A stretch of 64,000 nucleotides of DNA, taken from positions 636,953-700,952 of the forward strand of contig JAWABJ010000001.1 of assembly GCA_038884755.1 (NCBI GenBank), read 5' to 3'. Below the pieces are notes generated by a model. That model was not told where the DNA came from. It was given only the letters and a program-made list of their open reading frames with translations, and made no database searches. The DNA comes from Candidatus Norongarragalinales archaeon. GTDB taxonomy: Archaea; Micrarchaeota; Micrarchaeia; Norongarragalinales; Norongarragalinaceae. Made by a program: the position numbers and the translations under genes. Shown here piece after piece: positions 8,739 to 51,054 of this stretch (the first letter of the stretch is position 1; every line of letters begins with the position of its first letter).

Positions 8739-8824
8739 TGGAAAGAAATCGCTGAAGCCTAGCTTAAAAACCTAATCAGAGTGCCTTTCCAGTGGTTATC
8801 CAAATTTTTAATGTGCTTCAACTT

Positions 8825-9121
8825 CTAGAAAGTGCAGGTTCTAAGGTAGCCGTTTGGCGTTTTATAGATAAAACCTTCAGTAAACAAGAGCTCTACAAAA
8901 AGCCCGAGTTGTTTCTTGCGTATCTGAGGGAAATGTTTTTTTAATTGCTTTGCGGTTAGCCCACCGCTTTCATGCAACTGAATCCAGACGGCTAAAGGTT
9001 CCAAACCTTTAGGTACTCTCCAAGGCGGCAAAGAATCTGCTAAACGTGTTTTTGAAGAAATCATGTTGTCACGGTGAAACCAAAAATCTAAAGAGTGGTT
9101 GCGAGAGGACAATGCCAACAT
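8825..9121 (-). CDS. hypothetical small protein, possible winged-helix; start uncertain (internal M likely)
   Basis: ORF only; AT-rich context. Confidence 0.3.
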   Translation of the reverse strand: MLALSSRNHSLDFWFHRDNMISSKTRLADSLPPWRVPKGLEPLAVWIQLHESGGLTAKQLKKHFPQIRKKQLGLFVELLFTEGFIYKTPNGYLRTCTF

Positions 9122-9417
9122 AAAAAGGCGATAACGCCTGGGAGTTTGCCTGCCCTCGCACCACAGTCTCTCTCCCTTACGGGAGAACTTTTCTGCCTTC
9201 GCTATTGCTCACGCAACACGCATTAAAAAACCTTTCGCTAAAAAGAGCTTAAGCTGCCTTGTTTCGTTTAGAAAAGGCGTAAAAAGGGCTTAGAATATGA
9301 AAAAGAGGAAGCTAAAGGTTCGTTTTCCCCAAGCCTCTTGTCTGTTTCTACACGAATTGTTTTCTTTTATACAACCTTTTAAGCGTATGCTACTACCCCG
9401 CGGGAACTAAGCCAAAG

Positions 9418-9488
9418 CAAATCAGATGACTCTATTTTCATCACAACTCGCTTTCGCGATCAGAAGTACCTCTAGTCATCATTCGAAT
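9418..9488 (-). ncRNA. candidate C/D box sRNA (2'-O-methylation guide)
   Basis: On minus strand: C box AUGAUGA (9482-9476), 12 nt, D' CUGA (9463-9460), spacer, C' GUGAUGA (9444-9438), 12 nt, D CUGA (9425-9422); canonical archaeal 12-nt box-to-box spacing. Confidence 0.45.
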
Positions 9489-9518
9489 ACAATTCTACTG
9501 GAGGATGTTAATAAGAAA

Positions 9519-9591
9519 TAGCCCCGGGCGGATTCGAACCGCCGTCCACGGATTCAGAGTCCGTTATCCTGGGCCGCTAGACTACGGGGCT
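9519..9591 (-). tRNA. tRNA-Gln (CUG)
   Basis: Manual fold: acceptor AGCCCCG/CGGGGCT, anticodon stem ACGGA/TCCGT, loop CTCTGAA, T-arm GGCGG-TTCGAAT-CCGCC. Confidence 0.8.
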
Positions 9592-9643
9592 GCAACTGGA
9601 AATCGAAAAAAAACATATGCCCGCGGGGTTTGAAAATGCTTTG

Positions 9644-10363
9644 CTATTCAAACAAAAGTATGATTATCCAAATCGAGACTACGCCGAAAAGGAAGGAAGC
9701 GAATTCTATCACGGATTTGTTCAACGCAGTTTCTTTCTTCAACTCGGGAATCAGGTCGGTGCAGGCAATGTAAATCAGCCCTCCTGCCGATAGGGGAAGC
9801 AGGACTGACGAAAGGTTGGGCACAACAGATGAAAAGTAAAACACGACCAAAGCACCCACGACTGCAGCAAAGGCTGAAAGCAGGTTGAAAAGCAACGCCT
9901 TTTTTTGCGTCATGCCCCCGTAAAGCAGTATGGTGTAATCTCCGAACTCTTGCGGAATTTCATGCGCTGCCACCGCGATTGTCGTAGTAAAGCCAAGCAT
10001 TGAGTCTTGAATGAAGGCTGCGGCTATTATCGTCCCGTCGAGGAAATTGTGGATGGCGTCGCCGATGAGGTTGAGCGTTGTGAAAGGGTGACGGTGGGTT
10101 TTGGAATGATGGTGGTGCCAGAACAAGATTTTTTCCAGGACGAAAAACAGGACTACTCCGAGCAAGGCGTATTCAAGCGTGCCGCCCGCCTCCAGGGACT
10201 CTGGAAGTAAGTCAAGAAAAACAACTGCGAGCATTGTTCCTGCAGCAAAGCTCACAAACAAGCCCAAGTTCTTTTCCGCAGTCTTGCTGACAACGAAAAC
10301 TATTCCAACCAAAGAAAGCACGCTGACGAGCAAAGTCGCAGCGATAATTTCAAGCAAAACCAA
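9644..10363 (-). CDS. ZIP family divalent metal (Zn/Fe) transporter
   Basis: 8 TM helices, His-rich loop (HHHHSKTHRH), HEIPQEFGDY signature. Confidence 0.8.
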   Translation of the reverse strand: MVLLEIIAATLLVSVLSLVGIVFVVSKTAEKNLGLFVSFAAGTMLAVVFLDLLPESLEAGGTLEYALLGVVLFFVLEKILFWHHHHSKTHRHPFTTLNLIGDAIHNFLDGTIIAAAFIQDSMLGFTTTIAVAAHEIPQEFGDYTILLYGGMTQKKALLFNLLSAFAAVVGALVVFYFSSVVPNLSSVLLPLSAGGLIYIACTDLIPELKKETALNKSVIEFASFLFGVVSIWIIILLFE

Positions 10364-10438
10364 AGCGTCCTACACCTTAAACTGCCAGTAATTAGAAGGC
10401 TAGACTGAAAATTAAAGAGTTTCGTTGTTTAAAAAAAA

Positions 10439-10735
10439 TCAGCAGCGGTAATACCCGTAGTAGTCGTAGTAGCAGTTGTACTGGTATGGATAGTACGTGC
10501 CGTACGCAACGGGGTAGTAATAGTCGTAGTAACGCCCGCAGTTGTAGCCGTAACAACCGTAGTAATAGCCGTACGGATAGTAGAAATAGCCGTACGAATA
10601 CTGGTAGGGGTAGCCGTAGTTGTAATTGTTGTAGTAATAGTTGTTGTACTCGTAATAGTAATTGTGTGAAGCGCTTGCTAACGGGGCAAGGGAAAACGCC
10701 ACCATCAAGCCCATTAGAACGCTCTTCAACTCCAT
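10439..10735 (-). CDS. secreted Tyr/Asn/Gly-rich low-complexity peptide with Cys residues (start moved to MELKS... signal peptide)
   Basis: Signal peptide MELKSVLMGLMVAFSLAPLASA then ~75-aa mature region with >40% Tyr (YYYEYNNYYYNNYNYGYPYQYSYGYFYYPYGYYYGCYGYNC...); ORF-track N-extension overlaps neighbouring gene. Confidence 0.55.
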   Translation of the reverse strand: MELKSVLMGLMVAFSLAPLASASHNYYYEYNNYYYNNYNYGYPYQYSYGYFYYPYGYYYGCYGYNCGRYYDYYYPVAYGTYYPYQYNCYYDYYGYYRC

Positions 10736-10797
10736 CCTGCACGCCCCCTTTTCAATAAAACCCTGTCGCGCTTTCGCTTTAAAGCTTTTGCCGTTTT

Positions 10798-11298
10798 TTA
10801 AAGCCTCTTGAACAGCCCGTATTCTTTCGCCCAACAGCCGAAAACTAGTCCCGAGTCTACGAACCACAATGCCGGATGCACCACGTCTATCGCCTGCGGG
10901 CCGTACTCCGCGCCCACGGCTATAGTGAAAGCTACGCGGAGCAGGTTGAAGGTGAAAAAGAAGGCGAAGTAGCCGAGCATGCGCAAGTGTGGAATGCGGG
11001 TTTTAGTGGCGTAAAGCAGCGCGAAAAACAGGGCCATCATTACCAAGCCGCTGCAGTCCACGACTATTTCGAAAGCAGCATTTTCCACCACCAAGCTCGC
11101 TCCGTCTCTCAGCACGCCGTAGCCGGCGCTTGAAAGGAGGGACTCTTGCAGTTGGGCTACGAGCAGATTGACTGGCCTGGGCTCGGCAAGCTTGAGGAGT
11201 GCGAAAATCAACGAGAAAACGGTGGTGAAATAAAACAAAAAGTGCTTTTCTTTTTCCGACAGGGAGAAAAAAGGGCGTTTGGTTTTCCGTACGTCCAT
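10798..11298 (-). CDS. exosortase/archaeosortase-family protein (short form)
   Basis: Polytopic membrane protein with conserved VVDCSGL (catalytic Cys) and Arg positions typical of exosortase/archaeosortase domain. Confidence 0.5.
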   Translation of the reverse strand: MDVRKTKRPFFSLSEKEKHFLFYFTTVFSLIFALLKLAEPRPVNLLVAQLQESLLSSAGYGVLRDGASLVVENAAFEIVVDCSGLVMMALFFALLYATKTRIPHLRMLGYFAFFFTFNLLRVAFTIAVGAEYGPQAIDVVHPALWFVDSGLVFGCWAKEYGLFKRL

Positions 11299-11301
11299 AA
11301 C

Positions 11302-11829
11302 TTACCACGGCACTTTCTTCAACTGCATCTTGTGCGCAAGCCAATTGAAAAACAAGTGCAGGAAATAAGTCAAGACCAAAAGCCAAAGCACGTCCCACCC
11401 GTTCAACAGCTTGAAGACTACGGGTTGGGAGTATGCTATAAAAAGCAGGGCGACGACCAAAAACAACAACTGGTCGAGGAGAAAGTACTGCGATCCGGGT
11501 GCAAGACCCAAACGGCGTTTCACGAAACTGCCGAGCAAGTCTCCAGCCATTGCTCCGGCAGAGGCGAAAAAGGCCAGGATAATCTTGTCTTCAACCGAAA
11601 ACCACGGCATGAAAGGAAAGAGTAATGCCACGATCGCGCCGGCCAGCGTTCCCGCGACTATCCCGGAAACAAGACCGCGAACGGTTTTGGAATCGCCGAA
11701 AACGCGTTTTCCGTCGAAAAACTTCATTCCAAAATCAACTGTCGCACCGCCGCCGAAAACCACTGGCGCGCCGTTGGAAATGAAGGCTGGAAAGACCAAA
11801 AGCAAAAGTTCCACGAAATCCACGTTCAA
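11302..11829 (-). CDS. carS: CDP-archaeol synthase
   Basis: ~175-aa membrane protein with GDLLGSFVKRRLG cytidylyltransferase motif typical of CarS. Confidence 0.75.
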   Translation of the reverse strand: MNVDFVELLLLVFPAFISNGAPVVFGGGATVDFGMKFFDGKRVFGDSKTVRGLVSGIVAGTLAGAIVALLFPFMPWFSVEDKIILAFFASAGAMAGDLLGSFVKRRLGLAPGSQYFLLDQLLFLVVALLFIAYSQPVVFKLLNGWDVLWLLVLTYFLHLFFNWLAHKMQLKKVPW

Positions 11830-11863
11830 AACCCCACGCGGGTGAAAGAATTTGTTTTAAGCA

Positions 11864-12052
11864 ATGCTTTTAACCGTTCGTTTGAAAAAAATATTAATGA
11901 CAGTCCAAGGTGACGACATAGTAAAATCGTGCAGGAACTGCTGGAACCAGCATTCTTTCGGCATCAGGCTTTCCGAAAGCAGGGGAATTCTGCACTGCCC
12001 CATCTGCCACCAAAAGTACGTGGTGGAAAAAGGGTTTTTGAAGACGGTTTGA
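11864..12052 (+). CDS. small Zn-ribbon protein (CxxC...CxxC)
   Basis: 62 aa with CRNC...CPIC pairs. Confidence 0.35.
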   Translation: MLLTVRLKKILMTVQGDDIVKSCRNCWNQHSFGIRLSESRGILHCPICHQKYVVEKGFLKTV

Positions 12053-12065
12053 AAGGGATTGCAAA

Positions 12066-12599
12066 ATGGGTTGGCTCGTTTCCAAAAAAGACTTCGAGGT
12101 CGAAGACGAGCGCAAGCTCGAGCCGCTTTTCAAGGAAGCGGTGGAATACGGCGCCGTTTTGAGCGTGCTGCACTTCGACGCCCACGCCAAGGAATCCAAC
12201 GCGGTGAAAGACTCTCTGGTGGATTTCCTCTCGCGCCTGACCAAGGAAGAGGGAGTGTTGTACTGCAAGGGGGAAATCGAGGAAACGGTAGGAAGCGAGC
12301 AGGAAGGCTTTTCATCCACCGCCGAAGTCAAGATTCTCACGGACTCTTTCCCAACGCTCCTCCGCATTTCCATGCGCTACGGGCCGGTGGCGTTGGAAAT
12401 CCTCGAGCCTCGGGAAATCAAGATGAACGTTCCCGAAATGCAGGATCTATTGTTGAGCGCAAGCGAAATCTCCAAGCAATACGCGTCTTACGTAGTCGAA
12501 AAAATTTGGGGGAAGGAAGAGCTGGAGAAATACCGCGAGCGCGTGATGAGGCAGTTGGAAGAAGGAAGGAAGCTTCGCGAAAAGGCTGAAAAGGAATAG
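12066..12599 (+). CDS. hypothetical protein (acidic, K/E-rich C-terminus)
   Basis: ORF with coding-like composition; no recognisable motif. Confidence 0.4.
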   Translation: MGWLVSKKDFEVEDERKLEPLFKEAVEYGAVLSVLHFDAHAKESNAVKDSLVDFLSRLTKEEGVLYCKGEIEETVGSEQEGFSSTAEVKILTDSFPTLLRISMRYGPVALEILEPREIKMNVPEMQDLLLSASEISKQYASYVVEKIWGKEELEKYRERVMRQLEEGRKLREKAEKE

Positions 12600-12610
12600 A
12601 ATACGTTTTT

Positions 12611-14260
12611 CTATTGCTTGAACAATTCTTCAGCCACGACCCCGTAAGCCGGACGCGTCACCGCAATGCCCAAAATCACTCCGAGCATGGTTGCAACAGC
12701 AAAGCCCGTCACTTCGACTATTCCGCTGGAAAACAGGGGGAACATCGAAGCTATGGATATCCCCGCGGTGGTGAAAACAATGAAGAAAGCGCGGGAGAGC
12801 TTTTCCTTAGCCCCGACTTCGGCCTCGTTTTCCCTTCGCTTTCTCGAAAACTCGTCGGTAATCACGATTTGGTTGTCCACTCCCGTTCCTATTATCGCGA
12901 TTACTCCAGCCATCGCGCTGAGGTCGAGCGTGCCGAAAGTGCCGAGTATCGCGAGAAGCAAAACCAATTCTATTATGCTTGTCGCGACTATGGGCAGTAT
13001 GAGTAAAAGCTTGCGGTAGCGTAGGGTGAGAAAGAGAGAAACGGCGAATACGGCGAAGAACAACGCAAACATACTGTAAAACAAGAATTGCCTACCCAGC
13101 GAGGGGGAAACGTCGTAATAGCTTCCCACTATGGTCGTTACTGGCAGCCTGCCGCCGGAAAGGATGCTTTTCAACTCCCTCAATTCCACGAGCGCGTTCT
13201 GCTGCTGTTCTTCAGGCGTAGCGCCCGAAGACATTCCGGTAATGGAATATTGCGTTATCGCATTTTGGCCCAGCGGTTCCACCTGCAACGTGGGCGCGGA
13301 GCGGAGGCCTATCGCCTTCCAAGAAAATACGCTGGAGCCGAACTGGGCTTCGAAAGACTGCGGAACGAAGTCCGCGTCTGGCTTTACCACTATTTTCTTT
13401 TCTGACTCAGGGTTTTCAGAAAACCCGCTTTCCTCCAAAACGCGTTTTACTCGCGGGTTCCCTTCCAAAAGCCCTTTCCCTACGACCACGCGCGTCTTGC
13501 CCTGCAGCGAAGAGTTGGAAACGTCTTCAGCGAAAACAAGCGTTATGTCGTCGCCTTGCTTGCGCAAAACGTCTTCAAGCGAATCTTGCGGAATTCCCGC
13601 GATCGCGCTCTTGTTCAGCAAAAGAACCGCGTTTTCAGGCCGGTCGAGAAACATCAAAACCGGAAAACCCCTTTTACCCTTGGCAGCCTGCGCGAAAAAC
13701 AACTCCCCCTCTCCGGTAATCGCGAAAGTCAAGCCCCACTGCGCGCCTCCTGCAGTGTTGGTTATTGTCTCGCCCCCGCTTCCGCCAATCGCGTTCGCTA
13801 TCACGTGCTCGCCGCTTAAAGCCTGCCTTCCGTCGATAATCGCCTCGAACTTCCCTTGCTCGCGCAAAATCCGTTCTATGTTTTCGATTACTTTCGAGTC
13901 TGCGCGCGGTATTTCCACGATTATTTCCTTATCGCCTAACGGCCTTACTATCGCCTGGCTTAACCCAAACGCATTGATGCGCGTTTTGATAGTGTCCACC
14001 ATCGACTGCATGGTTTCAGAGTCCACGCTCCGCTCTAGGGAAATGGGCACGCGCACGCCGCCGACGAATTCTATGCCCATGTGCGCGTCGAACGTCGCGG
14101 GGTTAAAGTCTTTCAAAAACAGCAGGCCTAACGCTATTACGAACGCAAGCAAGACCACTTGAACCCTGCGCCTTTGCAAAAGCTCTTTCCAACCCATTTT
14201 TACACGCTCTTTTCCTTGCGCTCGACGCTCCACAATATCAAAGGCGCGTTGCCCATCCAA
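12611..14260 (-). CDS. secD: protein-export membrane protein SecD
   Basis: N-terminal TM, large periplasmic domain, C-terminal 5-TM RND-like bundle; followed by secF. Confidence 0.8.
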   Translation of the reverse strand: MDGQRAFDIVERRAQGKERVKMGWKELLQRRRVQVVLLAFVIALGLLFLKDFNPATFDAHMGIEFVGGVRVPISLERSVDSETMQSMVDTIKTRINAFGLSQAIVRPLGDKEIIVEIPRADSKVIENIERILREQGKFEAIIDGRQALSGEHVIANAIGGSGGETITNTAGGAQWGLTFAITGEGELFFAQAAKGKRGFPVLMFLDRPENAVLLLNKSAIAGIPQDSLEDVLRKQGDDITLVFAEDVSNSSLQGKTRVVVGKGLLEGNPRVKRVLEESGFSENPESEKKIVVKPDADFVPQSFEAQFGSSVFSWKAIGLRSAPTLQVEPLGQNAITQYSITGMSSGATPEEQQQNALVELRELKSILSGGRLPVTTIVGSYYDVSPSLGRQFLFYSMFALFFAVFAVSLFLTLRYRKLLLILPIVATSIIELVLLLAILGTFGTLDLSAMAGVIAIIGTGVDNQIVITDEFSRKRRENEAEVGAKEKLSRAFFIVFTTAGISIASMFPLFSSGIVEVTGFAVATMLGVILGIAVTRPAYGVVAEELFKQ

Positions 14261-15297
14261 GTCGCGATGGAGTCGACCAGCGCACCTATCACGGCGACTG
14301 CGCCGACCTGGTAGTAGAACGGAATTTGCAGCAACAGCGACAAAGCAAGCAGGGTCCCGAACGCGATGAGCACGGACGCGTTCATAGTCAAGCCGGTTTT
14401 CATCGCGTCAAAAGCCCTTTGCGCAGCCGTCCCTTCCTTGCGTTTTACCACGCGCGCGGTAAGCATCACATCCGTGTCAAGCGAAAATCCGATTAGCATG
14501 AGCAAGGCAGCGACGCTCGCGAGAGTCAAAGGAATTCCCACTAAACCCATTACCCCGGCGGTTATGACTATGTCTGCAACCGCCCCGAAAATCACCGCGA
14601 AACTGGACGCCCACGCGCGGAATATTAGGAAGATTATGACTGCCGAGAGAATGAAAGAATACAAAACGACTTCGCGGGTTTTAGTGACGAAAAACTTGCT
14701 TAGCGAAGAGCCGACTTCCTTGAACGAAGCGTTTTCGACGGAAACCACGCTTGCCAGGGCTTGCGAAACTTCGTGCCTGTAAGAGCTTCGCGCGTTCAAA
14801 AACGCCTGTTGCGCCTGCTCTACCGCTTTTCGCGCATCAGGCTCGCCCAACTGCCTTTCGGAAAACAGCGAGTTCAACTCCCGGGCTTTTGCTAAAACCT
14901 GCCGCCCTTTTTCCGCAGCAAGAGGTGAATTCGCTATTTCCAATTGCACGAGCTCGTTGTTCAAGGAATTCATTTCCGACAAGAGCGTTTCGCCTTTCGC
15001 TAGGTTCTCGTCGGAAGGAATTTCTATTTCCACCCCGCTTCCGGCGGGCGAGGAGAAACTGCGTATGCTTGCAGAGCCGAATTGCGCCAAAGCACCCTGA
15101 ATTTCAACTATTTTTTTTGGCGAAACCTCGCCGTCAGTAAAAACGGTTATGAGCAACCCTCCTCTCAAGTCAATGCCTTGCGGTATTTGCGGAATGTAGA
15201 ACAAAGCCGCAACGATTAGCACTAAGGGGAACACGAAATACAATTTGTAGTGCTTGTTTTCGTAAGGGTTGGAAATATGCATTTTGAGTAAGCCCAC
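14200..15297 (-). CDS. secF: protein-export membrane protein SecF
   Basis: SecF architecture (TM1, periplasmic domain, 5 TM with conserved GxxxD/PxxD-like region); overlaps secD by ~60 nt. Confidence 0.75.
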   Translation of the reverse strand: MGLLKMHISNPYENKHYKLYFVFPLVLIVAALFYIPQIPQGIDLRGGLLITVFTDGEVSPKKIVEIQGALAQFGSASIRSFSSPAGSGVEIEIPSDENLAKGETLLSEMNSLNNELVQLEIANSPLAAEKGRQVLAKARELNSLFSERQLGEPDARKAVEQAQQAFLNARSSYRHEVSQALASVVSVENASFKEVGSSLSKFFVTKTREVVLYSFILSAVIIFLIFRAWASSFAVIFGAVADIVITAGVMGLVGIPLTLASVAALLMLIGFSLDTDVMLTARVVKRKEGTAAQRAFDAMKTGLTMNASVLIAFGTLLALSLLLQIPFYYQVGAVAVIGALVDSIATWMGNAPLILWSVERKEKSV

Positions 15298-15417
15298 CGT
15301 TTAGCGCCCTATCAGTGATGATTAAAAGCCGCTTAGAAAAACTAGGCGCGAGAGGCTTAAAAACTCTTTTGAAAAGCAAAGGGTTTTTCTTGATTGGCAT
15401 GGAAGATTATTGTTCAA

Positions 15418-15587
15418 GCAGGGGTAGCGAAGCCTGGTCAAGAACCTTTTTGCTCTCGCAAAAAGCTTCACCAAAAACGCGACAGGTTCAGGGCCTGTTC
15501 TCTCAGGAGTTCGAGGGTTCAAATTGAGCAAAGCGCTGGCTTTGCAACGTTTCACTCGCTTTGCTCGTGAAACTCCCTCCCCCTGCA
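15418..15587 (+). tRNA. tRNA-Leu (CAG) with two non-canonical introns (D-loop hairpin intron ~15442-15472; 50-nt intron between T-loop and T-stem 3' strand, 15525-15574)
   Basis: Exons closely parallel the intronless tRNA-Leu(UAG) at 52704-52788: GCAGGGGTAGCG..., anticodon stem ACAGG/CCTGT loop TTCAGGG, long variable arm TCTCTCAGGAGTTC, T-arm GAGGG-TTCAAAT-[intron]-CCCTC, acceptor CCCCTGC+A; T-arm intron is a perfect 10-bp hairpin GAGCAAAGCG/CGCTTTGCTC. Confidence 0.7.
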
Positions 15588-33560: not shown

Positions 33561-33886
33561 GGGTGTCGGGTCGTAGTCCGCTTTTTGTTGCTCGCGACAT
33601 CCGTCTAAGCGTCCGGCAAACGGGACTTGCACCCCTTATAGCCCAGCTCGTTTCACCCGACTTCCGCGCAACGTCACATTACGGTCATACTGCGCGCGGT
33701 TCGGTATCGTTTCTATTCCAGGCTCGCGCCCAAAACGCGGGCACTTGCGTGCCTCCGTCCTTTGCTTTCTTTGATTGAACTTTCTTTCTCAAAGAAAGTT
33801 CAGGAGGGTGAGCGGAACTTCCTCAGCTGCCTCCCCTTATGCAGGAAAGGCTACCGACAGTCGCGCACCCAACACCCTTAAAGTAA
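33561..33886 (-). ncRNA. rnpB: RNase P RNA
   Basis: Minus strand: P4 5' strand GAGGAAGUUCCGCUC (bulged U) and P4 3' strand ACAAAAAGCGGACUAC match universal CR-I/CR-V; P1 formed by 5' GGGUGUUGGGU / 3' ACCCGACACCC; contains a GAACUUUCUUUCUCAAAGAAAGUUC hairpin insertion (33777-33801). Confidence 0.65.
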
Positions 33887-40455: not shown

Positions 40456-40543
40456 GAAGCCGCCTGAAACACCTTCAACCCCACTAAACATAGCAATCTA
40501 AAATACTACTTTGCGGTGCAAGGAATAAAAGCCTTTGCGACTA

Positions 40544-40568
40544 GCACTGGAAAGCTACTCTAATTAAG
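40544..40568 (+). promoter_or_regulatory. CACTGGAAAGCTACTCT module + TAATTAAGTTTAAAAA TATA-like element ~25 nt upstream of MTase start; same 17-mer heads the two BHB-type rRNA introns upstream of their HEG ORFs
   Basis: 17/17 identity to 16S-intron 5' end (rc of 49684-49700) and 16/17 to 23S L2593 intron (rc of 44015-44031), each followed by A/T-rich TATA-like box and a start codon 30-60 nt downstream. Confidence 0.5.
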
Positions 40569-40589: not shown

Positions 40590-41465
40590 GTGGTTAAGAC
40601 GAAGAAAATGATAAGCAAGTATTTGAATAAGCTCTATGTTAGAGACTGCCTTAGCTTCATGAAAGAGCTACCGGCAGGCAGCATAGACGTTATAGTAACT
40701 TCGCCACCATACAACATAGGCAAAGAGTACACTACCTACAAAGACGATAAAACTAGGATAGAGTATCTCGACTGGATGGAACAAGTAGCTATAGAGAGCA
40801 AACGAGTATTGAAAGAAAACGGCTCGTTCTTTCTTAATGTTGGCGGAAAACCGTCGGACCTTGCTATTCCTTACGATGTTGAAAACCGGTTTAGAAAATA
40901 CTTTGTCTTACAAAACGACATCATTTGGGTTAAATCAATAACAATCACTAAGGAAGATGTCGGCAAGTCTAATGGCTTAAGAAGTGACGTTTCGGTAGGT
41001 CACTATAAGCCGATTCAAAGCAACAGGTTCCTAAACAATTGCCACGAAAACATATTTCATTTTACTAAACATGGCAAAACAGAGGTAGACAAGCTTTCAA
41101 TTGGAGTGCCTTATCAATACAAATCTAACATAGAACGCTGGGGTAAGACAGAAGACAGAAGGGATAGGGGGGATGTTTGGTTTATCCCTTACGAAACGAT
41201 ACAAAGCCACAGACCACACCCGGCTACGTTTCCAGAAAAACTACCGCTAATGTGCATTAAACTACACGGAGTAAAGAAGGACATTGTAGTTTACGATCCA
41301 TTCATGGGAGTTGGAAACACGCCGTTGGCATGCCTAGAATTGGGAGTAAATTATATTGGCACCGACATCGATAAAGGATATGTTGAAATGGCTGAAGAGT
41401 TTATTCGAGAAAAGAAGGCTCAAGCCAGATTAGCTACAAAGCTCGTATCTCTTTCAGAAGAGTAA
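40590..41465 (+). CDS. beta-class DNA N4-cytosine/N6-adenine methyltransferase (SPPY motif; likely m4C)
   Basis: Motif IV VTSPPYN precedes motif I DPFMGVGNT (beta-class order); pfam N6_N4_Mtase-like; low-GC gene. Confidence 0.8.
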   Translation: MVKTKKMISKYLNKLYVRDCLSFMKELPAGSIDVIVTSPPYNIGKEYTTYKDDKTRIEYLDWMEQVAIESKRVLKENGSFFLNVGGKPSDLAIPYDVENRFRKYFVLQNDIIWVKSITITKEDVGKSNGLRSDVSVGHYKPIQSNRFLNNCHENIFHFTKHGKTEVDKLSIGVPYQYKSNIERWGKTEDRRDRGDVWFIPYETIQSHRPHPATFPEKLPLMCIKLHGVKKDIVVYDPFMGVGNTPLACLELGVNYIGTDIDKGYVEMAEEFIREKKAQARLATKLVSLSEE

Positions 41466-41916
41466 GCGCTTTTTTACGAGAAATTTTCGTAGTAGTGCTT
41501 AATTTTTTATCGTTCCACCATTCAAGCACTTGCCCAACAGGGACGATCCAAAAAGGAATATCTGGAAAAGATTCGATGTCAGAAATTATGAAACCTTCAA
41601 TTTCTCTAAGTTTCTTGAGAAAGCCTTCTTTGCCAAAAGACCGCCCAGAGCCAACCATGTAACTAGGCGAGAAGTAAATACCAGCCTTTGTGATGCTTCG
41701 AACTTCCCACTTGCCGCCTTTAGAATCTAAAAGGTCAAAACCTGCCCCTTCGCTTGGTGCAAGTTTACCATGCAAAACCTCGTAAGCAAGACGACGCTCT
41801 AACAAAAACGAAACGCGCCTCCCGTCAGTGAAGTAAAGCCTAACATCTGCTTCAGTTATTTTGAGAGCATTAGCTATCGCTTTAATATTCCAAGTAAACT
41901 TGCCGCTTGCTTTCAT
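41434..41916 (-). CDS. small putative restriction endonuclease (PD-(D/E)xK-like), convergent with and overlapping 3' end of MTase gene
   Basis: 160 aa, GFDLLDSKGGKWEVRSITK resembles D...(E/D)xK catalytic core of small type IIP REases (PvuII-size class); no database confirmation possible. Confidence 0.4.
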   Translation of the reverse strand: MKASGKFTWNIKAIANALKITEADVRLYFTDGRRVSFLLERRLAYEVLHGKLAPSEGAGFDLLDSKGGKWEVRSITKAGIYFSPSYMVGSGRSFGKEGFLKKLREIEGFIISDIESFPDIPFWIVPVGQVLEWWNDKKLSTTTKISRKKALTLLKEIRAL

Positions 41917-41964
41917 GAAAGAATAAACTAAAAGGGAATTTAAATAAACCCCTAAAAAAAAGGG

Positions 41965-42924
41965 TTAGCGGACTTTGAATTTACTTTTTATCCCCGCCTG
42001 TTCAAAGTGTTCTTTAAGCGAATCTATAAGAGCTTCAGTCATTGAATTTATTGCCTTGTGGCTAGTCCCCATCGCACCCCATTCACAGTCTGTGGACCAT
42101 TGTTCCGATTTCATTTTTGGAATAATGCGCAAAATCTTTTCAAAGGTTTCAGCGGTTATTTCCTTGTTTGGATCAACATAGTTAAGTACGATGTATCGAA
42201 ATAGCTTATTCATCACAAACACTCCGGTCCGTCTGAACAAAACATATTTTGTGGGCTGGGCATGTGCTTCAGAACAAATGTTTCTTATCGCAATCCAATA
42301 GTGATCTAGCATTTTTTCTAATATTTCGGTTGGCGTTCCTTTTAGATCGGATTTGAATATCGGCTCAAGAGAATCGGTAAATGCCTTTTGATTAATAAAT
42401 GCCCCAGATCTCGGTTCTTCGTTAGCCATCTGGATTCGGGTAGACCACACTTTTGAGGATCTATTTAGATATTCTGCTATTGCTAAAGCGTGCGGCTTCC
42501 AGTCAATACCACTAATTACTTGTTGAGGAAGGTTTGCCTTTGATACCCCGATCGTCCCTCCAAATTCTTCCTTTATATGAGGAAGAAACTGCTCTGCTAG
42601 ATCAGTTGGAACGCCTCGTTGAGTTTTATTCATTATAACAAACTGCAGCATCTCAGTGAACTCGATATTTTTTAGACCAGCGGCTTTAGGATCAACCCAC
42701 AAATTCGGACAGATTATTATTACTGGAAAAGGGTATTCTTCAACTCGTTCATCTCCAGGAGGAAAGGAATCGATGAGTTTTCGAAGACCGGCTATCCTGT
42801 GTTGGCCATCAACTTGCCAAAGTTTCTGATTAGGTGGCAAACGAATTTCGCCAAAACTACCGTTAACTTTCTTGAAGATAGGCGTTTTGTCTCTGGAATA
42901 GGCGCTGACTTTTCTTTTTTTCAC
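41965..42924 (-). CDS. DGQHR-domain protein (DndB-like / ParB-Srx superfamily)
   Basis: Diagnostic motif WQVDGQHRIAGL near N-terminus; 319 aa; 48 nt upstream of the small nuclease gene on the same strand. Confidence 0.6.
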   Translation of the reverse strand: MKKRKVSAYSRDKTPIFKKVNGSFGEIRLPPNQKLWQVDGQHRIAGLRKLIDSFPPGDERVEEYPFPVIIICPNLWVDPKAAGLKNIEFTEMLQFVIMNKTQRGVPTDLAEQFLPHIKEEFGGTIGVSKANLPQQVISGIDWKPHALAIAEYLNRSSKVWSTRIQMANEEPRSGAFINQKAFTDSLEPIFKSDLKGTPTEILEKMLDHYWIAIRNICSEAHAQPTKYVLFRRTGVFVMNKLFRYIVLNYVDPNKEITAETFEKILRIIPKMKSEQWSTDCEWGAMGTSHKAINSMTEALIDSLKEHFEQAGIKSKFKVR

Positions 42925-43273: not shown

Positions 43274-43975
43274 TTATCGATCCTTCCCTTCAAGCGGCCA
43301 AACAATCCTAAAAGATGCAACCGAACTGTCTATGTCGCCTCTTCTAGAACGCTTAAGCAATTCAAAACGAAACACTTTATCCGGATGAGCCGAATCAAAA
43401 CAATCGTAAAACTTCAACACTTGCTCGCTCCCGTGAACCATCAACGCAAACATTTGCGTTTGGCTTCCTTTCTTAACGTACGGCCCGCAAACGCGTCCGC
43501 AGCGAACTCCGAATTCGGAAACGATTTCCTTTATTTCGCCCAGAACACCCTGGTTGGCTTGAGCCAAATAAACCCGAATGTCCTTTTCAGGAATGTTCAA
43601 AGTCGTTTTCTCGAAGGAATTAACGCTTCCCTCCGCATCGAAAAAACCCCGGACGTAAGCCGCCTTAAGTTCTCCAGAGCCTTTTGAAATCCACGTTGGG
43701 GTTAGCCAAGTGGATTGGTCTCCGTTGAATTCAGCGAACTTCGAAAGTTCTTGAAAAACTTTCTTGGAAGTAATGCTCAAACACCAAACGCCATGCCGCT
43801 CGTCGAAGTAAAAGCTAGCGTTCTTGCCGAAATTCCTTTCGAGAATTCCGGCCAAAAGCTCGAGCCATCGTTTGCTCTTTTGGTAAAACCCGATTCGATA
43901 AATGCCTTGTTCAGGAATGCTCGTGATGTTTCCATCACGCAAGGCTCCGATCAAGTAAGCGATTTCTTCATTCAC
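43274..43975 (-). CDS. double-motif LAGLIDADG homing endonuclease (GTG start assumed at 43975; last 19 codons run past the 3' splice site into exon 2)
   Basis: Motifs LIGALRDGN and GFFDAEGSV; ORF-track N-terminal 78 codons (43976-44209) are translated 23S exon/intron-5' sequence and rejected. Confidence 0.7.
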   Translation of the reverse strand: MNEEIAYLIGALRDGNITSIPEQGIYRIGFYQKSKRWLELLAGILERNFGKNASFYFDERHGVWCLSITSKKVFQELSKFAEFNGDQSTWLTPTWISKGSGELKAAYVRGFFDAEGSVNSFEKTTLNIPEKDIRVYLAQANQGVLGEIKEIVSEFGVRCGRVCGPYVKKGSQTQMFALMVHGSEQVLKFYDCFDSAHPDKVFRFELLKRSRRGDIDSSVASFRIVWPLEGKDR

Positions 43976-44070
43976 GATTAATCCGAAATCTTCCTCTGCT
44001 TTTAAATCTTGAGAGAGTGGCTTTCCAGTGCTTCCAGTGAATTGCCTATGATTGTGCGTTCTAAAAGAGG
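43331..44070 (-). mobile_element. archaeal (bulge-helix-bulge type) intron in 23S at the I-CreI-like site (E. coli ~2593), carrying a LAGLIDADG ORF
   Basis: Splits AACGUCGCGA|GACAGUUCGG; intron termini CCUCUUUUAGAACGC...GCGUUCUAGAAGAGG are complementary (long terminal helix typical of archaeal rRNA introns); no group I core elements. Confidence 0.7.
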
Positions 44071-44517: not shown

Positions 44518-44555
44518 TTTTTCTTTACTTGATTTTTCTTTCGTAAAGAAAAATC
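44518..44555. repeat. hairpin-repeat insertion in 23S: UUUUUCUUUACUUGAUUUUUCUUUCGUAAAGAAAAAUC
   Basis: Near-identical (35/38) to copy in 16S at 49958-49997. Confidence 0.7.
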
Positions 44556-44984
44556 ATTTGTTAAGATCACAGTCAATCCAGCATTTGTCTTTGACCCTCT
44601 ACAACGCATTTCTAACGCGTCTGAGCTGAATATTGGGCGCCTTTGTTATCTTTTCGAAGGCGTGCCGCCCCAGCCAAACCACCCACCTGCAGCTGTCTTT
44701 CTTTCGAAATGAGCAATGCAGTCGAAAAATAGCAGTGTCACACTTTCGCCTATCGCACTCCCGGAAGAGTGCGCTTGACGGCTCCTGCTTACGCTTTGAT
44801 TCTCCAACCGAATTACAACAACAGGCTGTGGTTAAGCTCCACGGGGTCTTCGTTTCCCTTTAGGATTCCTCGGCATGTTCACCGAGAAGTAGGTTCACCA
44901 GGTCCAAGGTAGGGACAGCAAGACAGTCGTTACGCCATTCATGCAAGCCGCCAATTAAGCGGCGAGGTACTACGCTACCTTAAG

Positions 44985-45709
44985 CAACTTTTCGTATGCA
45001 TTTTGCACTGAAAAGCTGGACTATATCTTCACCGTCTTAGGGTGTTCGGCGTATAGTCTCTGAGGATCCTGTCTTTGCGTCCAACTCTTGCATTATTTCA
45101 TCCAAAGTGCTCTTGCGTTGTTTTCCTTCCAAATTCATTCGGAAGGCCAAGCGCACGAGTTTTTTGAACGAGTCAAGGTCGGAATGCTCTTTTCTTTCTA
45201 ACGCTTCAACAATTTCCTTGAACAGAAGAAAGTCTTTCTCTTTCGAGACAAGCGGATACTTGTCGAAAAAAGGAATTACTTTCTCCGCCAACTGCCTTCG
45301 GTTGTCTACAACGAACTGCATTAATTCCGGTTGACCGTGTTTTTCCACGACCCTTCCGCAAGAAAGCCTGCTTCGGAATAAATCCAAAACCGCTTGTCCT
45401 TGCTTGTGTTGGGTTACGTGAAAAACCGGGTCTAAAACCAACCCGAATTTTGCAGTGTCTTCTTGTTTTAAAGACACGTTGAAACAACCTTCAGCGTCGG
45501 CGAATCCGCTCAAGAAAAAATCGGCGTTTCTTCCTTTCGTGAGTTTACTCAACCCAGCCATAGGCAACCACCTTTTTGGTTCTTTTAAAATTACAGTTTC
45601 CTGCTGATAGCATTCAACGTTTCAAGCTCTTTTCCTTACTCAGGGTCTTGAAACTCCCGCGTTCCAGCATACAGCCGAATTTAGCGACTCCCTTTAACTT
45701 GATTGCTCA
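44985..45709 (-). mobile_element. group I-like intron in 23S (E. coli ~1917 site) carrying LAGLIDADG ORF
   Basis: 5' exon ends ...GACUCU (U at -1) pairing with internal guide GGGAGUC (U:G at splice site); P-like AACGCGGGAG, Q-like UAUCAGCAGG, R-like CAGAGACUAUACG, S element AAGAUAUAGUCC (exact consensus), P9 hairpin, terminal G; ligated exons restore ..UAACUCUGACUCU|CUUAAGGUAGCG. Confidence 0.7.
45037..45567 (-). CDS. single-motif LAGLIDADG homing endonuclease (TTG/ATG start), encoded from P6 region through P7/P8 of the group I intron
   Basis: LSGFADAEGCF motif; 176 aa; R element encoded as ...SETIRR..., stop codon in P8 loop. Confidence 0.75.
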   Translation of the reverse strand: MPMAGLSKLTKGRNADFFLSGFADAEGCFNVSLKQEDTAKFGLVLDPVFHVTQHKQGQAVLDLFRSRLSCGRVVEKHGQPELMQFVVDNRRQLAEKVIPFFDKYPLVSKEKDFLLFKEIVEALERKEHSDLDSFKKLVRLAFRMNLEGKQRKSTLDEIMQELDAKTGSSETIRRTP

Positions 45710-46023
45710 AGAGTCAGAGTTACTCCCGCTCTTTGCCAGTCCTTTGCTCCCTTGAAAAGGAGTTTGAGATACTGGTAGTGAGCAGGCGTCAACCATCGTA
45801 CTCAACCTTTCGGTTTTGCGATGATTTGTGTTTTTGATAAACAGTCGCTGTCTCCTTGCCACTGCGACCTACAAACCCCCAATCGACAAAGTCTATGGAA
45901 GAATGTAGGCAGCCCTTCTTCCGAAGTTACGGGCCTAGATTGCCGAATTCCCTTACCATGGTTCTCCTGCCACGCCTTGGCTTGCTCTGCCAGGACCACC
46001 TTTCAGTAAAAAATTTCTTTGGG

Positions 46024-46063
46024 TTTTCTTTACTGAATTTTTCTTTTCCCAAAAGAAAAATTC
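46024..46063. repeat. hairpin-repeat insertion in 23S: UUUUCUUUACUGAAUUUUUCUUUUCCCAAAAGAAAAAUUC
   Basis: Shares UUUCUUUACU-N-AAUUUUUCUUU...AAAGAAAAAUU module with 44518 and 49958 copies. Confidence 0.65.
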
Positions 46064-47920
46064 TTGTACTGGTTCTGGGTACGGACACTCGAGATCACTC
46101 CCGCTCCATTTTCACGGACTCTAGGATTCAGCCCAACCCCCTTGCGGAGGCCATTCCCAGCTTCAACGAGTGCTCCTCATTACGAGACTTCCCCGTTGTA
46201 TTCAAGTTAACAACGATGCGCGTTGTGGGCCTATCCCTAAGCGTTTGGATGCGGGCTTGCGTTGCCGCACTTACTCAAGTGGTACGCGAATGTTAACGCG
46301 TTTCCCTTTCGACATCACTGTCGTTTAGTCTTAGGACCGACTTACTCTTGGTCGACTAACGTTGCCAAGAAACCCTTAGTCCTTTCGGCGTCCAGGATTC
46401 ACACCTGGAATAGTTGCTACTAGCACCAAGATCTTCATTGCAATCCGCTCCACAAGACCTCACGGCCTTGCTTCTGCGCGAACTGCACGCCCCTCTACTA
46501 AATCACGCTCAACAAAGCGTGTTCTGAAGTATCGGCGAACTGCTTAGTCCCGAGAGTTTACAACGCTCCAGTCCTTGATGGGTCCGCTGTTACGCGTTGT
46601 TTAAAGGATGGCAGCTTCTGTTCCTACCTCCCCACTGTCTGAGAACCGAAACGTCTTGAAGAACACTCAGCAGTTTCTTAGGGGCCTTAACTCCAGTAAG
46701 CGTCTTTACGCCCTCGCCGCACGCGCTTAACTCATGCGGCCAACTCCTGTCTTCTACAACGTCGTTAGCTTCGGAGTTTGATAGCAAAGTGAGGGCTTTC
46801 GCCCCCGTGCTTCGCAATCGGTAGCTCTACCTAACGACAATCTCCAACAGGGCTGAACTGCGGTTCACTTCGAAGGGAACCCGCTATCGCCAAGCTCGAA
46901 TGCACTTTCATCCCTAAACGCGAGTCACCCAAGAGGCTAGACCATCACTGGTTTCGGGCTTCCACCACCCTGAAGGGCGGCTTCACCCTGCTCACGCTTA
47001 GATCGCTTTGGCTTCGGGTCTCACGAGAGTGACTTGACGCCGGTTAAGACGTTCTCCCTCGCACCTTGCGGTGTTGCGGAGTTTTCGCTTTCGCTATGCA
47101 CAATGCTTGCCACTCTCGTGAACTCCTTGGCTCTTGCTTCAAGAAGTACGACACGACCCCGTGCCCTCTTCGGGCCTTTCGGGCCGAGTCTTCATGTCGC
47201 CTTACAATTTCAGGCACTTTTAACGCCGCTTTCGCGGTGCTTTTCAGTTTTCCCTCACGGTACTGAATTCGCTATCGGTCTTGAGTTGTATTTTAGGGTT
47301 GCAAGTTAATACTCGCGTTTTCACACAGCCAATCCAGGCTATGCTACTCTGGAATTCCTCCCATCCCCTTTCGGTTCGCTTACACGGCTTTCACGTTCTA
47401 AAGCGGCATTTTCCAATGCCCTTCAGCTCTCGATCGGGGATTAAAAGAAGGAACCCAAACTCCACATTTCTACTCTCTTTGCAGAGAGGATTCGGTTTGC
47501 CCTGATGCGCTTTCGTTCGCACTAATCACGCAATCCCTATTGGTTTCTCTTCCTCCGCTTACTAAGATATTTCAATTCAGCGGGTGTGCGCTCTTTCCAG
47601 AGCATTCGGGAACCTTGGGTTCAAAGCCTGCATGCGGCTACCCCAAGCTTTTCGCAGCTTGCCACGCCCTTCGTCGCCACTCAAGCCAAACCATCCACTG
47701 TAAGGCTTTGCAACAACTACTCCTCGATAAACCTGCACAGCTTCATGAAAATATGCACTCTTGCGAGTGCATTAAATCAGCACTTCGAATTCAAACGCCC
47801 GTGCAAGGGGTCTTGCTTTGAATTCTGTTTTCTTCGCCCGCAAACCGTTTTGAGGCGGTCAGCGGACACACGCATTTTCCTGTGATTTCCGCGCTCCGGT
47901 TTTTTCCGGCGGTTTTTCTT

Positions 47921-47977
47921 TTTTTGCTTTTCTTTCTTTACTTAATTTTTTCTTTCTTTCGCAAAAAGAAAGAAAGG
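47921..47977. repeat. TTTCTTTC...GAAAGAAA hairpin repeat copy in the 16S-23S spacer (UUUUUUCUUUCUUUCGCAAAAAGAAAGAAAGG)
   Basis: Perfect palindromic stem; member of family also at 44518-44555, 46024-46063, 49958-49997, 33777-33801, and inside tRNA introns at 19268-19326, 19917-20031, 20051-20190, 27541-27585. Confidence 0.7.
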
Positions 47978-48274: not shown

Positions 48275-48490
48275 CATGTAGTTCCACATGTCGCCATGCG
48301 GCATGGACTATATCATCATCTCAATTTCTTGAGCGTCTGCGTGTAGTCTCTGAGGGGTCAATCATTTTCATGACGACTTCCCTGCTGATAGACCCCACCT
48401 GAACCGTTGCCGGTTCAGGATACACGGGTTGTTCCAGCATACAGCAGATTTTGTCTGCATCCTCGCGGATGCAGGTCGCAACATAAGTTT
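48275..48490 (-). mobile_element. 216-nt ORF-less group I intron near 16S 3' end (between GUCGU and AACAAGGUAACC; E. coli ~1506 site)
   Basis: U at -1 with IGS GCGAC pairing exon GUCGU (U:G); P2 CUGCAUCC/GGAUGCAG, P5 CUGAACCG-GCAA-CGGUUCAG, Q-like UAUCAGCAGG, R CAGAGACUACACG, P8 CUCAAGAAAUUGAG, S GAUGAUAUAGUCC, P9 CCAUGCCGCAUGG, terminal G; core elements near-identical to the 23S L1917 intron. Confidence 0.7.
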
Positions 48491-49031
48491 ACGACTTAAC
48501 CCTCCTCATGAAGATCTAGCTCGAATGCGACCGAAGTCGCAGCCTCACTAAAACCTCACTTGGATGGCTTGACGGGCGGTGTGTGCAAGGAGCGGGGACA
48601 TATTCACCGCGCGATGATGACACGCGATTACTAGGGATTCCAACTTCATGGGGGCGAGTTTCAGCCCCCAATCTGTACTGGAGTAGGGTTTAGGTGATTG
48701 CCTCCGCCTTTCGGCGTCGGAACACATTGTCCCTACTATTGTATGCCACGTGTGGCCCAGCAGATTCAGGCCATACGGACCTAGCGTCGCCTTCTCCTTC
48801 CTCCCACTTAACGCGGGCAGTCTCCACAGAGTGCCCTCCGAATTGCTTCGAAGGTAGCAACTGTGGACGAAGATCTCGCTCGTTGCACGACTTAACGTGA
48901 CACCTCACGGCACGAGCTGGCGCTGGCCATGCAACACTTCTCGGCTTGTTGGCTAAGATCTTTAGTCTGAGCTTCATACTGCCGTCTCTGCTGGTGAGTT
49001 TCCCGGCGTTGAGTCCAATTGAACCGCAGCA

Positions 49032-49719
<688 letters not shown>

Positions 49720-49957
49720 TCCTTTAAGTTTCAATCTTGCGATCGTACTCCCCAAGCGGCAGACTAAACGTTTTCACTACGGCACTGCAGCAACGCGAAG
49801 TCGCTGCAACGCCAAGTCTGCATCATTTACTGCACAGGACTACTCGGGTATCTAATCCGATTCGCTACCCTGGCCTTCGTTCCTCACCGTCAGACGTGTT
49901 TTGTCCAAGCGCTTTCGCCACCGATGGTCCTCTAAGGATTACAGGATTGTAAGCACA

Positions 49958-49997
49958 GTTTTTCTTTACTCAATTTTTCTTTCGTAAAGAAAAATTG
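49958..49997. repeat. hairpin-repeat insertion in 16S (within the ~720 region): UUUUUCUUUACUCAAUUUUUCUUUCGUAAAGAAAAAUUG
   Basis: Interrupts conserved GGGGUGAAAUCCUGUAAUCC context; near-identical to 23S copy. Confidence 0.7.
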
Positions 49998-51054
49998 TTT
50001 TACTCCTCCCCCTAAAGTACCCTTGGACTCCCCCACTCTCAAGCTCGGTAGTATTCCCTGCACGCCCATCCGTTGAGCGGATGGATTTCACAGGAAACTT
50101 GCCAAGCCGGCTACGGACGCTTTAAGCTCAATATTCGTGGATACCACTAGTTCTACCTGTGTTACCGCGGCGGCTGGCACAGGATTTACCCAGAACTTAT
50201 TCCACCGGCTATTCAAGCCGGTTAAAAGCCGACCTTTCGATCGGCACTCGGACTACCCCCATCACGCTTTCGCGCATTGTGGAATTTTCGCGCCTGCTGC
50301 ATCCCGTAGGACTCGGGCCCTTGTCTCAGTGCCCGTCTCGGGGCTCCTACTCCCATAGCCCCTACTGATTATAGGTTTGGTGGGCCGTTACCTCACCAAC
50401 AGCCTAATCAGCCGCAGTGCCATCTTACAGCAAACTTGCTCCAATTCGCTTTTTTTTCAACCGCCAACCGTTCCAGGTACGGCGGCCTATGGCGTGTTAC
50501 CCGCACTTTCGCGCGGTTATTCGCCTCTGTAAGGTAGGTTCACTACGTGTTACTGAGCCGTTTGCCGGGATTACAAGTGTAATCCCCAAACTTGCATGGC
50601 TTAGTCGTAATCCGATAGCAGTATCCTCCAGCAGGATCAACTGGTGTTGTCCTAACACCCGATTCGGGTGTTAGGACGGAGATCGCAAGAACTAACTTAT
50701 CTTGCGGAATGAGCGTCTTGCATAGAGTTATTTGCTCTCTTCTTCCCCTGCGTCGAACCCAAATGAGAATCGCTTGCCATCAGAGATGGAAGAACATAAT
50801 TCTTTGTTTGAGTGCCCATGATCGCTGTAGTAGTAAAAATAGCAACGCCAGTCATGGATTCACGCAGAGGCGAAAAACGCGATAGCAAGGCGTTTCTACG
50901 CTCTCAGATAAAGTCTTCTATGGCTTGCCGGGAACTACAGCATTAGAAAAAACACTCTTTCCGAAGAAAGAATGCCTTTATTAAATCGTCGAAAGGAGTT
51001 TAAAAAGCTTTTGAATCAACCGCGGGATGTAGCGCTTTGCAAGCGAAACAAATA

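Follow-up and report, generated by a model that had tools for sequence, protein, structure and literature searches.

A putative regulator site upstream of DNA-handling and selfish genes in Norongarragalinales archaea

Archaeal upstream activator sites, such as those of Ptr2 in Methanocaldococcus, TFB-RF1 in Pyrococcus, SurR, and TrmBL1, lie directly upstream of the transcription factor B recognition element (BRE), in a fixed orientation and at a fixed distance, and are shared by a set of promoters. In DNA damage regulons, one motif links a recombinase gene (RecA or RadA) with repair helicases, and is tapped by genes of mobile elements; this is the case for the SOS box (LexA), the radiation/desiccation response motif (RDRM) of Deinococcus (DdrO), and the DNA damage-responsive element (DDRE) of Sulfolobales. 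Here we describe an element that resembles both kinds of site. It contains a 17-nucleotide (nt) sequence, referred to below as the 17-mer, and was recognized in a 64-kb stretch of DNA (the window) from a Candidatus Norongarragalinales archaeon, a member of the Micrarchaeota within the DPANN archaea. We propose, with a probability of about 0.7, that the 17-mer is a cis-regulatory sequence acting at the level of DNA, a putative regulator site that abuts the BRE and TATA box and marks a regulon of DNA-handling genes in the Norongarragalinales. This proposal draws on the rarity, position, orientation, and spacing of the element, on the genes associated with it, on its conservation at orthologous promoters, and on its modular presence or absence.

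There are also clear differences from the systems described. Compared with the archaeal activator sites, the element is unrelated in sequence and is built of direct repeats spaced by 10–11 bp instead of a short palindrome; its length and its constancy within any one genome are unusual, and the genes that carry it are DNA-handling and selfish genes. The Sulfolobales DDRE is a 6-mer, ANTTTC, bound by Orc1-2 (PMC9738581). The SOS and RDRM sites are palindromic operators that overlap the promoter, so the element differs from them in sequence and in position, and its regulon differs from the damage regulons compared in that Mre11/Rad50 are not included. A further comparison can be made with the intron-borne homing endonuclease genes of phage T4, which have promoters inside the intron and are controlled separately from the host gene; I-TevI autorepresses at its own promoter. 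Here, in contrast to T4, the introns are those of archaeal ribosomal RNA (rRNA) genes (of the bulge-helix-bulge and group I types), and the element is shared with host recombination genes rather than being an operator that resembles a homing site.

The 17-mer, CACTGGAAAGNNACTCT, is present four times in the window, where none would be expected by chance. A search with the query CACTGGAAAGCYACTCT and up to two mismatches returned four sites, compared with no matches in 100 dinucleotide-preserving shuffles. When the two variable bases were entered as N and up to three mismatches were allowed, the same four sites alone were found, so the 17-mer family is sharply bounded. An original prediction, made from the letters of the window, had placed the sequence in front of a type II DNA methyltransferase gene, within the interval 40521–40568, and in the introns of the 16S and 23S rRNA genes. 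All three copies are present as exact matches (Table 1), but the set was incomplete, a fourth copy in front of the gene for a Hel308-type helicase having been missed. Each of the four copies is oriented toward a gene, and each is followed, as predicted, by an A/T-rich TATA-like box, which lies 7–9 nt downstream, and by a start codon. The 17-mers of the two intron endonuclease genes differ at one base, while the proteins share 43 of 111 aligned residues. A third endonuclease gene within the 23S rRNA gene, of the LAGLIDADG_1 family (45037–45567), has no 17-mer.

The start codon lies 35–39 nt past the 17-mer for Hel308 and both intron endonuclease genes; the TTTAAA-type boxes of these three genes begin 26–32 nt before their starts, without a Shine-Dalgarno sequence, and the element occupies about −36 to −66 relative to the start codon. 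For the methyltransferase, the distance is 28 nt to the GTG at 40590, the predicted start, or 46 nt to an ATG at 40608. The open reading frame (ORF) itself stands, but its true start is probably the ATG, since in the longer ORF the match to the profile of type II methyltransferases begins only at about residue 10 and the GTG sits too near the TATA box. The same TATA-to-ATG geometry is found at several unrelated genes of the window, so leaderless transcripts may be common in this region of the genome.

The likely content of the regulon was read by pooling the window with its relatives, whose loci are cited below by L numbers; this gave 27 distinct promoter contexts of 110 nt. Their consensus is (CCACTGGA)AG-CACTGGAAAG-CY-ACTCT-AATTAAG-TTTAAAA, and about half of the contexts carry a second upstream repeat. 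In its extended form the element comprises three direct repeats at 10–11 bp spacing, CCACTGGAAG-CACTGGAAAG-CCACTCT, a tandem form seen in many relatives; the 27-bp element reads CCACTGGAAGCACTGGAAAGCCACTCT. With this spacing, successive repeats would share one face of the DNA helix. Downstream genes were identified by Pfam or PADLOC. The largest group encodes LAGLIDADG_3 endonucleases, in rRNA introns, in a group I intron, or free-standing (10 of the 27 contexts), followed by N6/N4 methyltransferases (four). Hel308, RadA (the exact element in L055, L057, and L060), and a DUF4258 gene that lies directly upstream of radA account for three contexts each. Two precede small zinc-ribbon ORFs followed by SMC, and single contexts precede a fusion of an Mrr nuclease with a ResIII helicase and a gene of no assigned family. 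All 26 identifiable contexts are DNA-handling genes or lie in DNA-related units, with no metabolic or translation genes among the 27. The start codon lies 35–41 nt past the element in 15 of the 27 contexts, a spacing that was not part of the search pattern. Variants with one mismatch, again followed by a TATA box, lie in front of the gene for a type IIG restriction-modification enzyme, another endonuclease gene in a 23S intron, and an ORF of no assigned family in a 16S intron.

These associations bear on the original prediction of a promoter or regulator site shared by selfish genes. The promoter or regulator site is supported, and the element does recur in relatives in front of other homing endonuclease and restriction-modification genes, but it is not confined to selfish genes, as Hel308, RadA, and the small-ORF/SMC unit also have it. 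Two side observations concern the genes served. The SMC gene below the element-bearing small-ORF unit in L032 (from 2965) seems to hold an intein in its P-loop (GPNGSGK/CVKGDSKV...). In L033, an element-bearing LAGLIDADG gene and a 5S rRNA gene adjoin a gene (4194–4529) for a 111-amino-acid (aa) protein in which the TBP repeat, normally present twice in archaeal TBP, occurs once.

Public sequences were scanned for the exact 17-mer followed by TTTWA 6–10 nt downstream. Among one genome per species (185,579 species), 10 stretches matched, with about 10 chance matches expected by our estimate; five of the 10 are on five contigs of one Micrarchaeota genome (RIFCSPHIGHO2_12_FULL_52_14), and the other five are single matches in unrelated bacteria. 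The same pattern matched 35 metagenome stretches, 27 of them Micrarchaeota-like and eight by chance. Aside from chance matches, these scans found the module only in relatives of the window organism. The 17-mer alone gave 27 single matches in viral contigs, which is the chance level, and none had the TATA module; a viral source of the element was rejected on these grounds. Abundance at scattered positions, which would have spoken for coincidence, was not seen: in the public scans and in the window the 17-mer is rare and keeps a fixed place before the BRE and TATA box, and all copies seen in 267 kb of related DNA, counting the window, have a TATA box. The window copies, the comparisons of variants and orthologues, and the copy in L079 are free of bias from the search pattern; the L079 copy, located by the 17-mer alone, also faces a gene with a TATA box 7–9 nt downstream. 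Literature searches on the motif string and on promoter motifs of Micrarchaeota returned no description of this motif or regulon.

Orthologous promoters provide a further line of evidence. The exact 17-mer is kept before Hel308 in contigs that are syntenic with positions 1–15,500 of the window (74–81% DNA identity overall, 75–81% for the Hel308 genes), where the DNA immediately upstream of it cannot be aligned with that of the window. At greater distances the site drifts in place: the same position of the Hel308 promoter reads CATCGGCACCTTACTCT at 73% Hel308 protein identity, CACTGGCACGCCACTCC at 68%, and CACTGGAACCGAAGCG (CACTGGAACCG...) in Ca. Norongarragalina meridionalis at 62%, and at 59% nothing recognizable is left. 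The recombinase gene, which is expected in an SOS-like regulon, carries the element in relatives: in addition to the three loci with the exact element, radA has variants in two further lineages (L077 and L078), where CCACTGGAAAGGACGTCT and CACTGGAAGCACGCTCC lie before a TATA box and the upstream regions read CCACTGGAAAGGACGTCT plus TTTATAAA and CACTGGAAGCACGCTCC plus TTATTAAT. In one of these two loci, a Cas4-like nuclease gene is preceded by CACTGGAA and then ATTAAAAG. Two different promoters in L075 have the same drifted form, GGCA(C/G)G; on the thin evidence of two sites, this would fit sites that track the changing specificity of one factor. Across the promoters of the 27 contexts, the spacer and the 5′ region vary far more than the 17-mer does.

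Introns show that the promoter can come and go as a unit. L042 and L052 hold the group I intron of the window at about 95% identity, with a clean 45-nt loop insertion (CTTTTTGCACTGGAACACTGGAAAGCAACTCTGTGTTCAGGTTTA) that replaces a few bases; a LAGLIDADG ORF begins about 30 nt past the insertion, with a GAGGT ribosome-binding site before it. As the insertion is distinct from the ORF, the promoter unit is physically separable from the ORF that it serves. Three different contents were found at the 16S intron site: the 672-nt LAGLIDADG intron of the window, a 656-nt intron in L028 (5909–6564), and a 127-nt insert without an ORF in L052 (803–929). The L028 intron has an unrelated ORF of 214 aa, without a Pfam match and PD-(D/E)xK nuclease-like by eye, and both ORF-bearing 16S introns have the element near their 5′ end. 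The near-identical 17-mers before the two diverged intron endonuclease genes of the window would be best explained by selection, not by shared descent of the whole cassette. More generally, intron content differs among close relatives: the group I intron of the window (48275–48488) is absent from L028, which in turn has an extra 23S intron (about 1611–2288) that is not in the window.

Taken as a regulator site, the element would be bound by a sequence-specific protein that recognizes the direct repeats next to the BRE, so that the genes would be co-regulated, and the TATA boxes would be active promoters, including those inside rRNA introns. With the exact element, the predicted regulon would take in RadA, Hel308, the small-ORF/SMC unit, methyltransferases, the Mrr-helicase fusion, the DUF4258 protein, and many LAGLIDADG genes, with the type IIG restriction enzyme gene linked to it by a one-mismatch variant. 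Homing endonuclease and restriction-modification genes would thus have joined a DNA-handling regulon of the host. The endonuclease genes in rRNA introns would each have their own internal promoter with the element, and those of the window would probably be expressed from leaderless messenger RNAs and not translated from the rRNA precursor.

From the kinds of gene it includes, the regulon would be under the control of DNA damage, recombination, or the chromosome cycle. As to its direction, an activator working under DNA damage or recombination demand is slightly favored over a repressor, at little better than even odds, because it is at this position that known archaeal activators such as Ptr2, TFB-RF1, and upstream-bound SurR or TrmBL1 act. 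The BRE and TATA boxes are near consensus, so a repressor that blocks TFB would fit equally well. Homing requires repair of a double-strand break by homologous recombination, and coupling of the endonucleases to RadA and Hel308 would therefore make biological sense. More tentatively, and well short of an even chance, the element may give DPANN archaea an SOS-like regulon of ‘recombination on demand’, which homing genes (in bulge-helix-bulge and group I introns) and restriction-modification genes joined by way of a portable 45-nt cassette, so as to cut only when RadA and Hel308 are available, the regulator being an Orc1/Cdc6 paralogue or a domesticated LAGLIDADG-winged-helix protein.

A candidate of the latter type exists. 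Among the element-bearing genes of relatives is one for a LAGLIDADG protein of 369 aa that has a winged helix domain at its C terminus. In bacteria, the transcription factor WhiA is derived from LAGLIDADG endonucleases by addition of a helix-turn-helix domain (PMC10243135). The 369-aa protein shares this domain logic, which makes it a candidate regulator, although the two are not homologous beyond the fold class. Pfam returned nothing for the other proteins considered, namely those of the small zinc-ribbon ORFs, of the 79-aa ORF inserted ahead of the Hel308 element, and of the 214-aa ORF in the 16S intron of L028, and none of these is supported as a regulator.

Several points weigh against the proposal of a dedicated regulator site. 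The regulon is deduced from sequence, and within the source organism itself it is known from 64 kb. Operons for Mre11/Rad50 that stand beside radA in two relatives do not have the element, and the proposed regulon therefore covers repair genes incompletely. The search pattern itself accounts in part for the uniform sequence and spacing of the public matches. Finally, in 16S introns the 17-mer may have an extra role in RNA, or be put to local use in the closing stem.

The strongest of the other explanations, though an unlikely one, is that the repeats, BRE, and TATA box form a portable 45-nt promoter cassette that is merely strong, moves along with mobile genes such as those for homing endonucleases and restriction-modification, has no dedicated regulator, and owes its uniformity to recent spread or gene conversion. 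The discrete insertion or deletion of 45 nt in the group I intron is what such a cassette would produce, and the copies found in any one genome hardly differ. Endonuclease, methyltransferase, or restriction genes make up 15 of the 27 contexts, and intron content varies among relatives. Spread alone would not readily account for an element that stays before Hel308 and radA orthologues, down to about 60–70% Hel308 protein identity, while the intergenic DNA diverges, nor for a 17-mer that is much more conserved than the spacer and 5′ region of the same promoters; a bare archaeal core promoter needs no 17–27 conserved bases upstream of its BRE. Neither terminal inverted repeats nor a target-site duplication is visible at the 45-nt insertion in L052, and a miniature mobile element carrying a promoter was rejected for this reason.

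Next, and improbable in its own right, is the idea that the binding factor is an Orc1/Cdc6 paralogue and the element a derived half-site of the origin recognition box (ORB), adapted to the control of transcription. It is compatible with the regulator-site proposal, for which an Orc1/Cdc6 paralogue offers a possible lead. The element has in common with ORB and mini-ORB sites the core CCA(C/G)TGGAAA (PMC4153887, PMC1904270); its most conserved part, CCACTGGAAA, is the core of published origin boxes, for example GTTCCACTGGAAACAGAGGGGT, with the archaeal consensus CTTCCAGTGGAAACGAAAGGGGT (PMC4153887), and one variant of the element reads CAGTGGAAAG. Orc1-2 is moreover an established regulator of the damage response on Saccharolobus promoters (PMC9738581), and RadA and Hel308 are in the proposed regulon. 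The likeness was noticed after the fact, however, and extends to only 9–10 bases, the ACTCT arm having no counterpart in origin boxes, and the Sulfolobales Orc1-2 site is different (PMC9738581). No orc1/cdc6 gene and no origin-like cluster of dyads was found in the window or in the relatives' loci examined. From the ORB dyad, TTCCA(G/C)TGGAA, the element has CCACTGGAA(A) only, with the 5′ TT absent in most copies, and the downstream ORB G-string (GGGGT) is replaced by GCYACTCT. The element is also dispersed and always lies before a TATA box, instead of being clustered at an origin. Without the G-string and origin clustering, and with the dyad incomplete in most copies, it was rejected as an origin box as such.

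A function in the transcript, whether as a protein site, a part of the intron fold, or a translation signal, is very unlikely. Within introns the 17-mer is transcribed as part of the rRNA precursor, and in both 16S introns its CTGGAAAG part is complementary to CTTTCCA or CTTTCCGG, 29–44 nt from the intron 3′ end, where pairing (in the window, 49688–49695 with about 49084–49090) would extend the closing helix. Three 23S introns, in contrast, have no partner complementary to it; the 17-mer has no internal hairpin, and Rfam gave no RNA family at any copy. At non-intron genes the 17-mer lies upstream of the TATA box and so outside the messenger RNA, and its distance is fixed to that box and not to the start codon, which varies from 35 to 93 nt away.

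The original prediction had also offered the methyltransferase copy as a fragment of an intron end deposited at a genomic-island boundary, on the view that the methyltransferase upstream region reproduces about 45 nt of the 16S intron. Outside the 17-mer and TATA box, the two share the 8-mer AAGGAATA only, which is spaced from the 17-mer by 17 nt at the methyltransferase and 14 nt in the intron; two random 30-mers from the window share some 8-mer with a probability of 0.013. On the carA strand the 8-mer reads within CTTTTATTCC, 32–41 nt before the carA ATG at 40491, and may belong to the carA promoter. In the 16S intron its bases are in the terminal helix that closes the intron (AAUAGCGCAAUC pairing with GAUUGCGUUAUU), and the pairing partner is missing at the methyltransferase locus. 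An intron fragment from one mobile source is thus rejected as the least likely of the explanations, for although the 8-mer recurs and the region between carA and the rRNA operon varies among relatives, with restriction-modification genes in both of those compared, nothing else aligns, the methyltransferase promoter is closer to the non-intron promoters (identical over CTACTCTAATTAAGTTTAAAA, through the spacer and TATA box), genes outside any island, Hel308 and radA, have the element as well, and no viral contig has the module. Separately, a homing-site reading of the 17-mer was rejected, as it bears no relation to the junctions of the exons, which read AAACTTAAAGGA/ATTGGCGGGGG and AACGTCGCGA/GACAGTTCGG.

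Table 1. Copies of the 17-mer, associated promoter sequences, and surrounding genes and introns in the window.
Feature	Position	Strand	Evidence or remark
17-mer copy 1, CACTGGAAAGCTACTCT	40545–40561	+	Upstream of the type II DNA methyltransferase gene; exact match
17-mer copy 2	49681–49697	−	About 21 nt inside the 16S rRNA intron; exact match to CACTGGAAAGCYACTCT
17-mer copy 3	44014–44030	−	23S intron; exact match to CACTGGAAAGCYACTCT
17-mer copy 4, CACTGGAAAGGCACTCT	8778–8794	−	Upstream of the Hel308 gene; G for C at the eleventh base
Half repeat TCACTGGAAG	44031–44040	−	Precedes copy 3; read from sequence
BRE-like spacer AATTAAG and TATA box TTTAAAAA	40562–40576	+	Methyltransferase promoter; matches the consensus of the 27 contexts
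TATA box TTTAAAG	49665–49671	−	Precedes the ATG of the endonuclease gene in the 16S intron by 19 nt; read from sequence
TATA box TTTAAAAG	43999–44006	−	Precedes the GTG of the endonuclease gene in the 23S intron by 23 nt; read from sequence
TATA box TTTTTAAG	8763–8770	−	24 nt before the Hel308 ATG, leaderless geometry; read from sequence
8-mer AAGGAATA	40521–40528	+	Counted as part of the module in the original prediction; probably not part of it
Type II N6/N4 DNA methyltransferase gene	40590–41465	+	Pfam N6_N4_Mtase 5.4e-48; PADLOC MTase_II 1.4e-106
Type II restriction enzyme gene, 160 aa	41434–41916	−	PADLOC REase_II 1.4e-51; convergent with the methyltransferase gene
16S intron homing endonuclease gene (LAGLIDADG_3, 194 aa)	49061–49645	−	Pfam PF14528 1.8e-9
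23S intron homing endonuclease gene (LAGLIDADG_3, 233 aa)	43274–43975	−	Pfam PF14528 8.3e-14
Hel308-type DNA helicase gene, 675 aa	6711–8738	−	Pfam DEAD, Helicase_C, Helicase_dom4_arc; homologue named Hel308 by NCBI
Archaeal rRNA operon (16S, tRNA-Ala, 23S)	16S 48443–50647; 23S from 47722 downwards	−	Rfam
16S intron, 672 nt	roughly 49047–49718	−	Limits from comparison with L028
ORF-less group I intron, 214 nt, 3′ end of the 16S gene	48275–48488	−	Rfam RF00028, 51.8 bits
725-nt insertion in the 23S gene, with LAGLIDADG_1 ORF 45037–45567	44985–45709	−	Not in L028

Some further features of the window adjoin the copies listed in Table 1. The region from carA to the 3′ end of the rRNA operon (40590–42924) holds the methyltransferase gene, the gene for the 160-aa restriction enzyme, which has its own TATA box and no 17-mer, and a 319-aa DndB/DpdB-like gene; the matching region of the relative L048 carries different genes, including one for a type IIG enzyme, which marks this as a variable defence-type region. 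Near Hel308, a 295-nt insertion (8795–9089), not in L051 or L070, abuts the 5′ edge of the 17-mer exactly; the 79-aa ORF within it resembles a winged helix protein by its look and has no Pfam match. A sequence like that of a C/D box small RNA (about 9440–9500, minus strand; ATGATGA ... CTGA ... GTGATGA ... CTGA) sits in a conserved non-coding stretch between a tRNA gene (9519–9591) and the Hel308 promoter. Finally, A/T-rich repeats that form hairpins and measure about 40 nt (TTTTTCTTTACTTGATTTTTCTTTCGTAAAGAAAAATCATTT) make up a family whose members are found within or next to rRNA genes, within the gene for RNase P RNA, and at other places, with copies at 44518–44559, 46023–46064, 47931–47972, 49959–50000, 33764–33805, 19284, 27674, 43144, and 53428.

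The element and its proposed regulon are new, lineage-specific, and broader than the original prediction had it. Gene regulation is almost unstudied in DPANN archaea, which are uncultivated or host-dependent, and a sharply defined element with a regulon that can be read from sequence, RadA included, gives a handle on the control of their recombination and repair. At 27 bp, the element could itself be used as bait to find its regulator. The arrangement also suggests that intron-borne homing endonuclease genes of archaea have promoters of their own within rRNA genes and that their transcription keeps pace with the recombination machinery of the host, which homing needs. If this is true, it would provide a concrete case of selfish genes that are tuned to host physiology.

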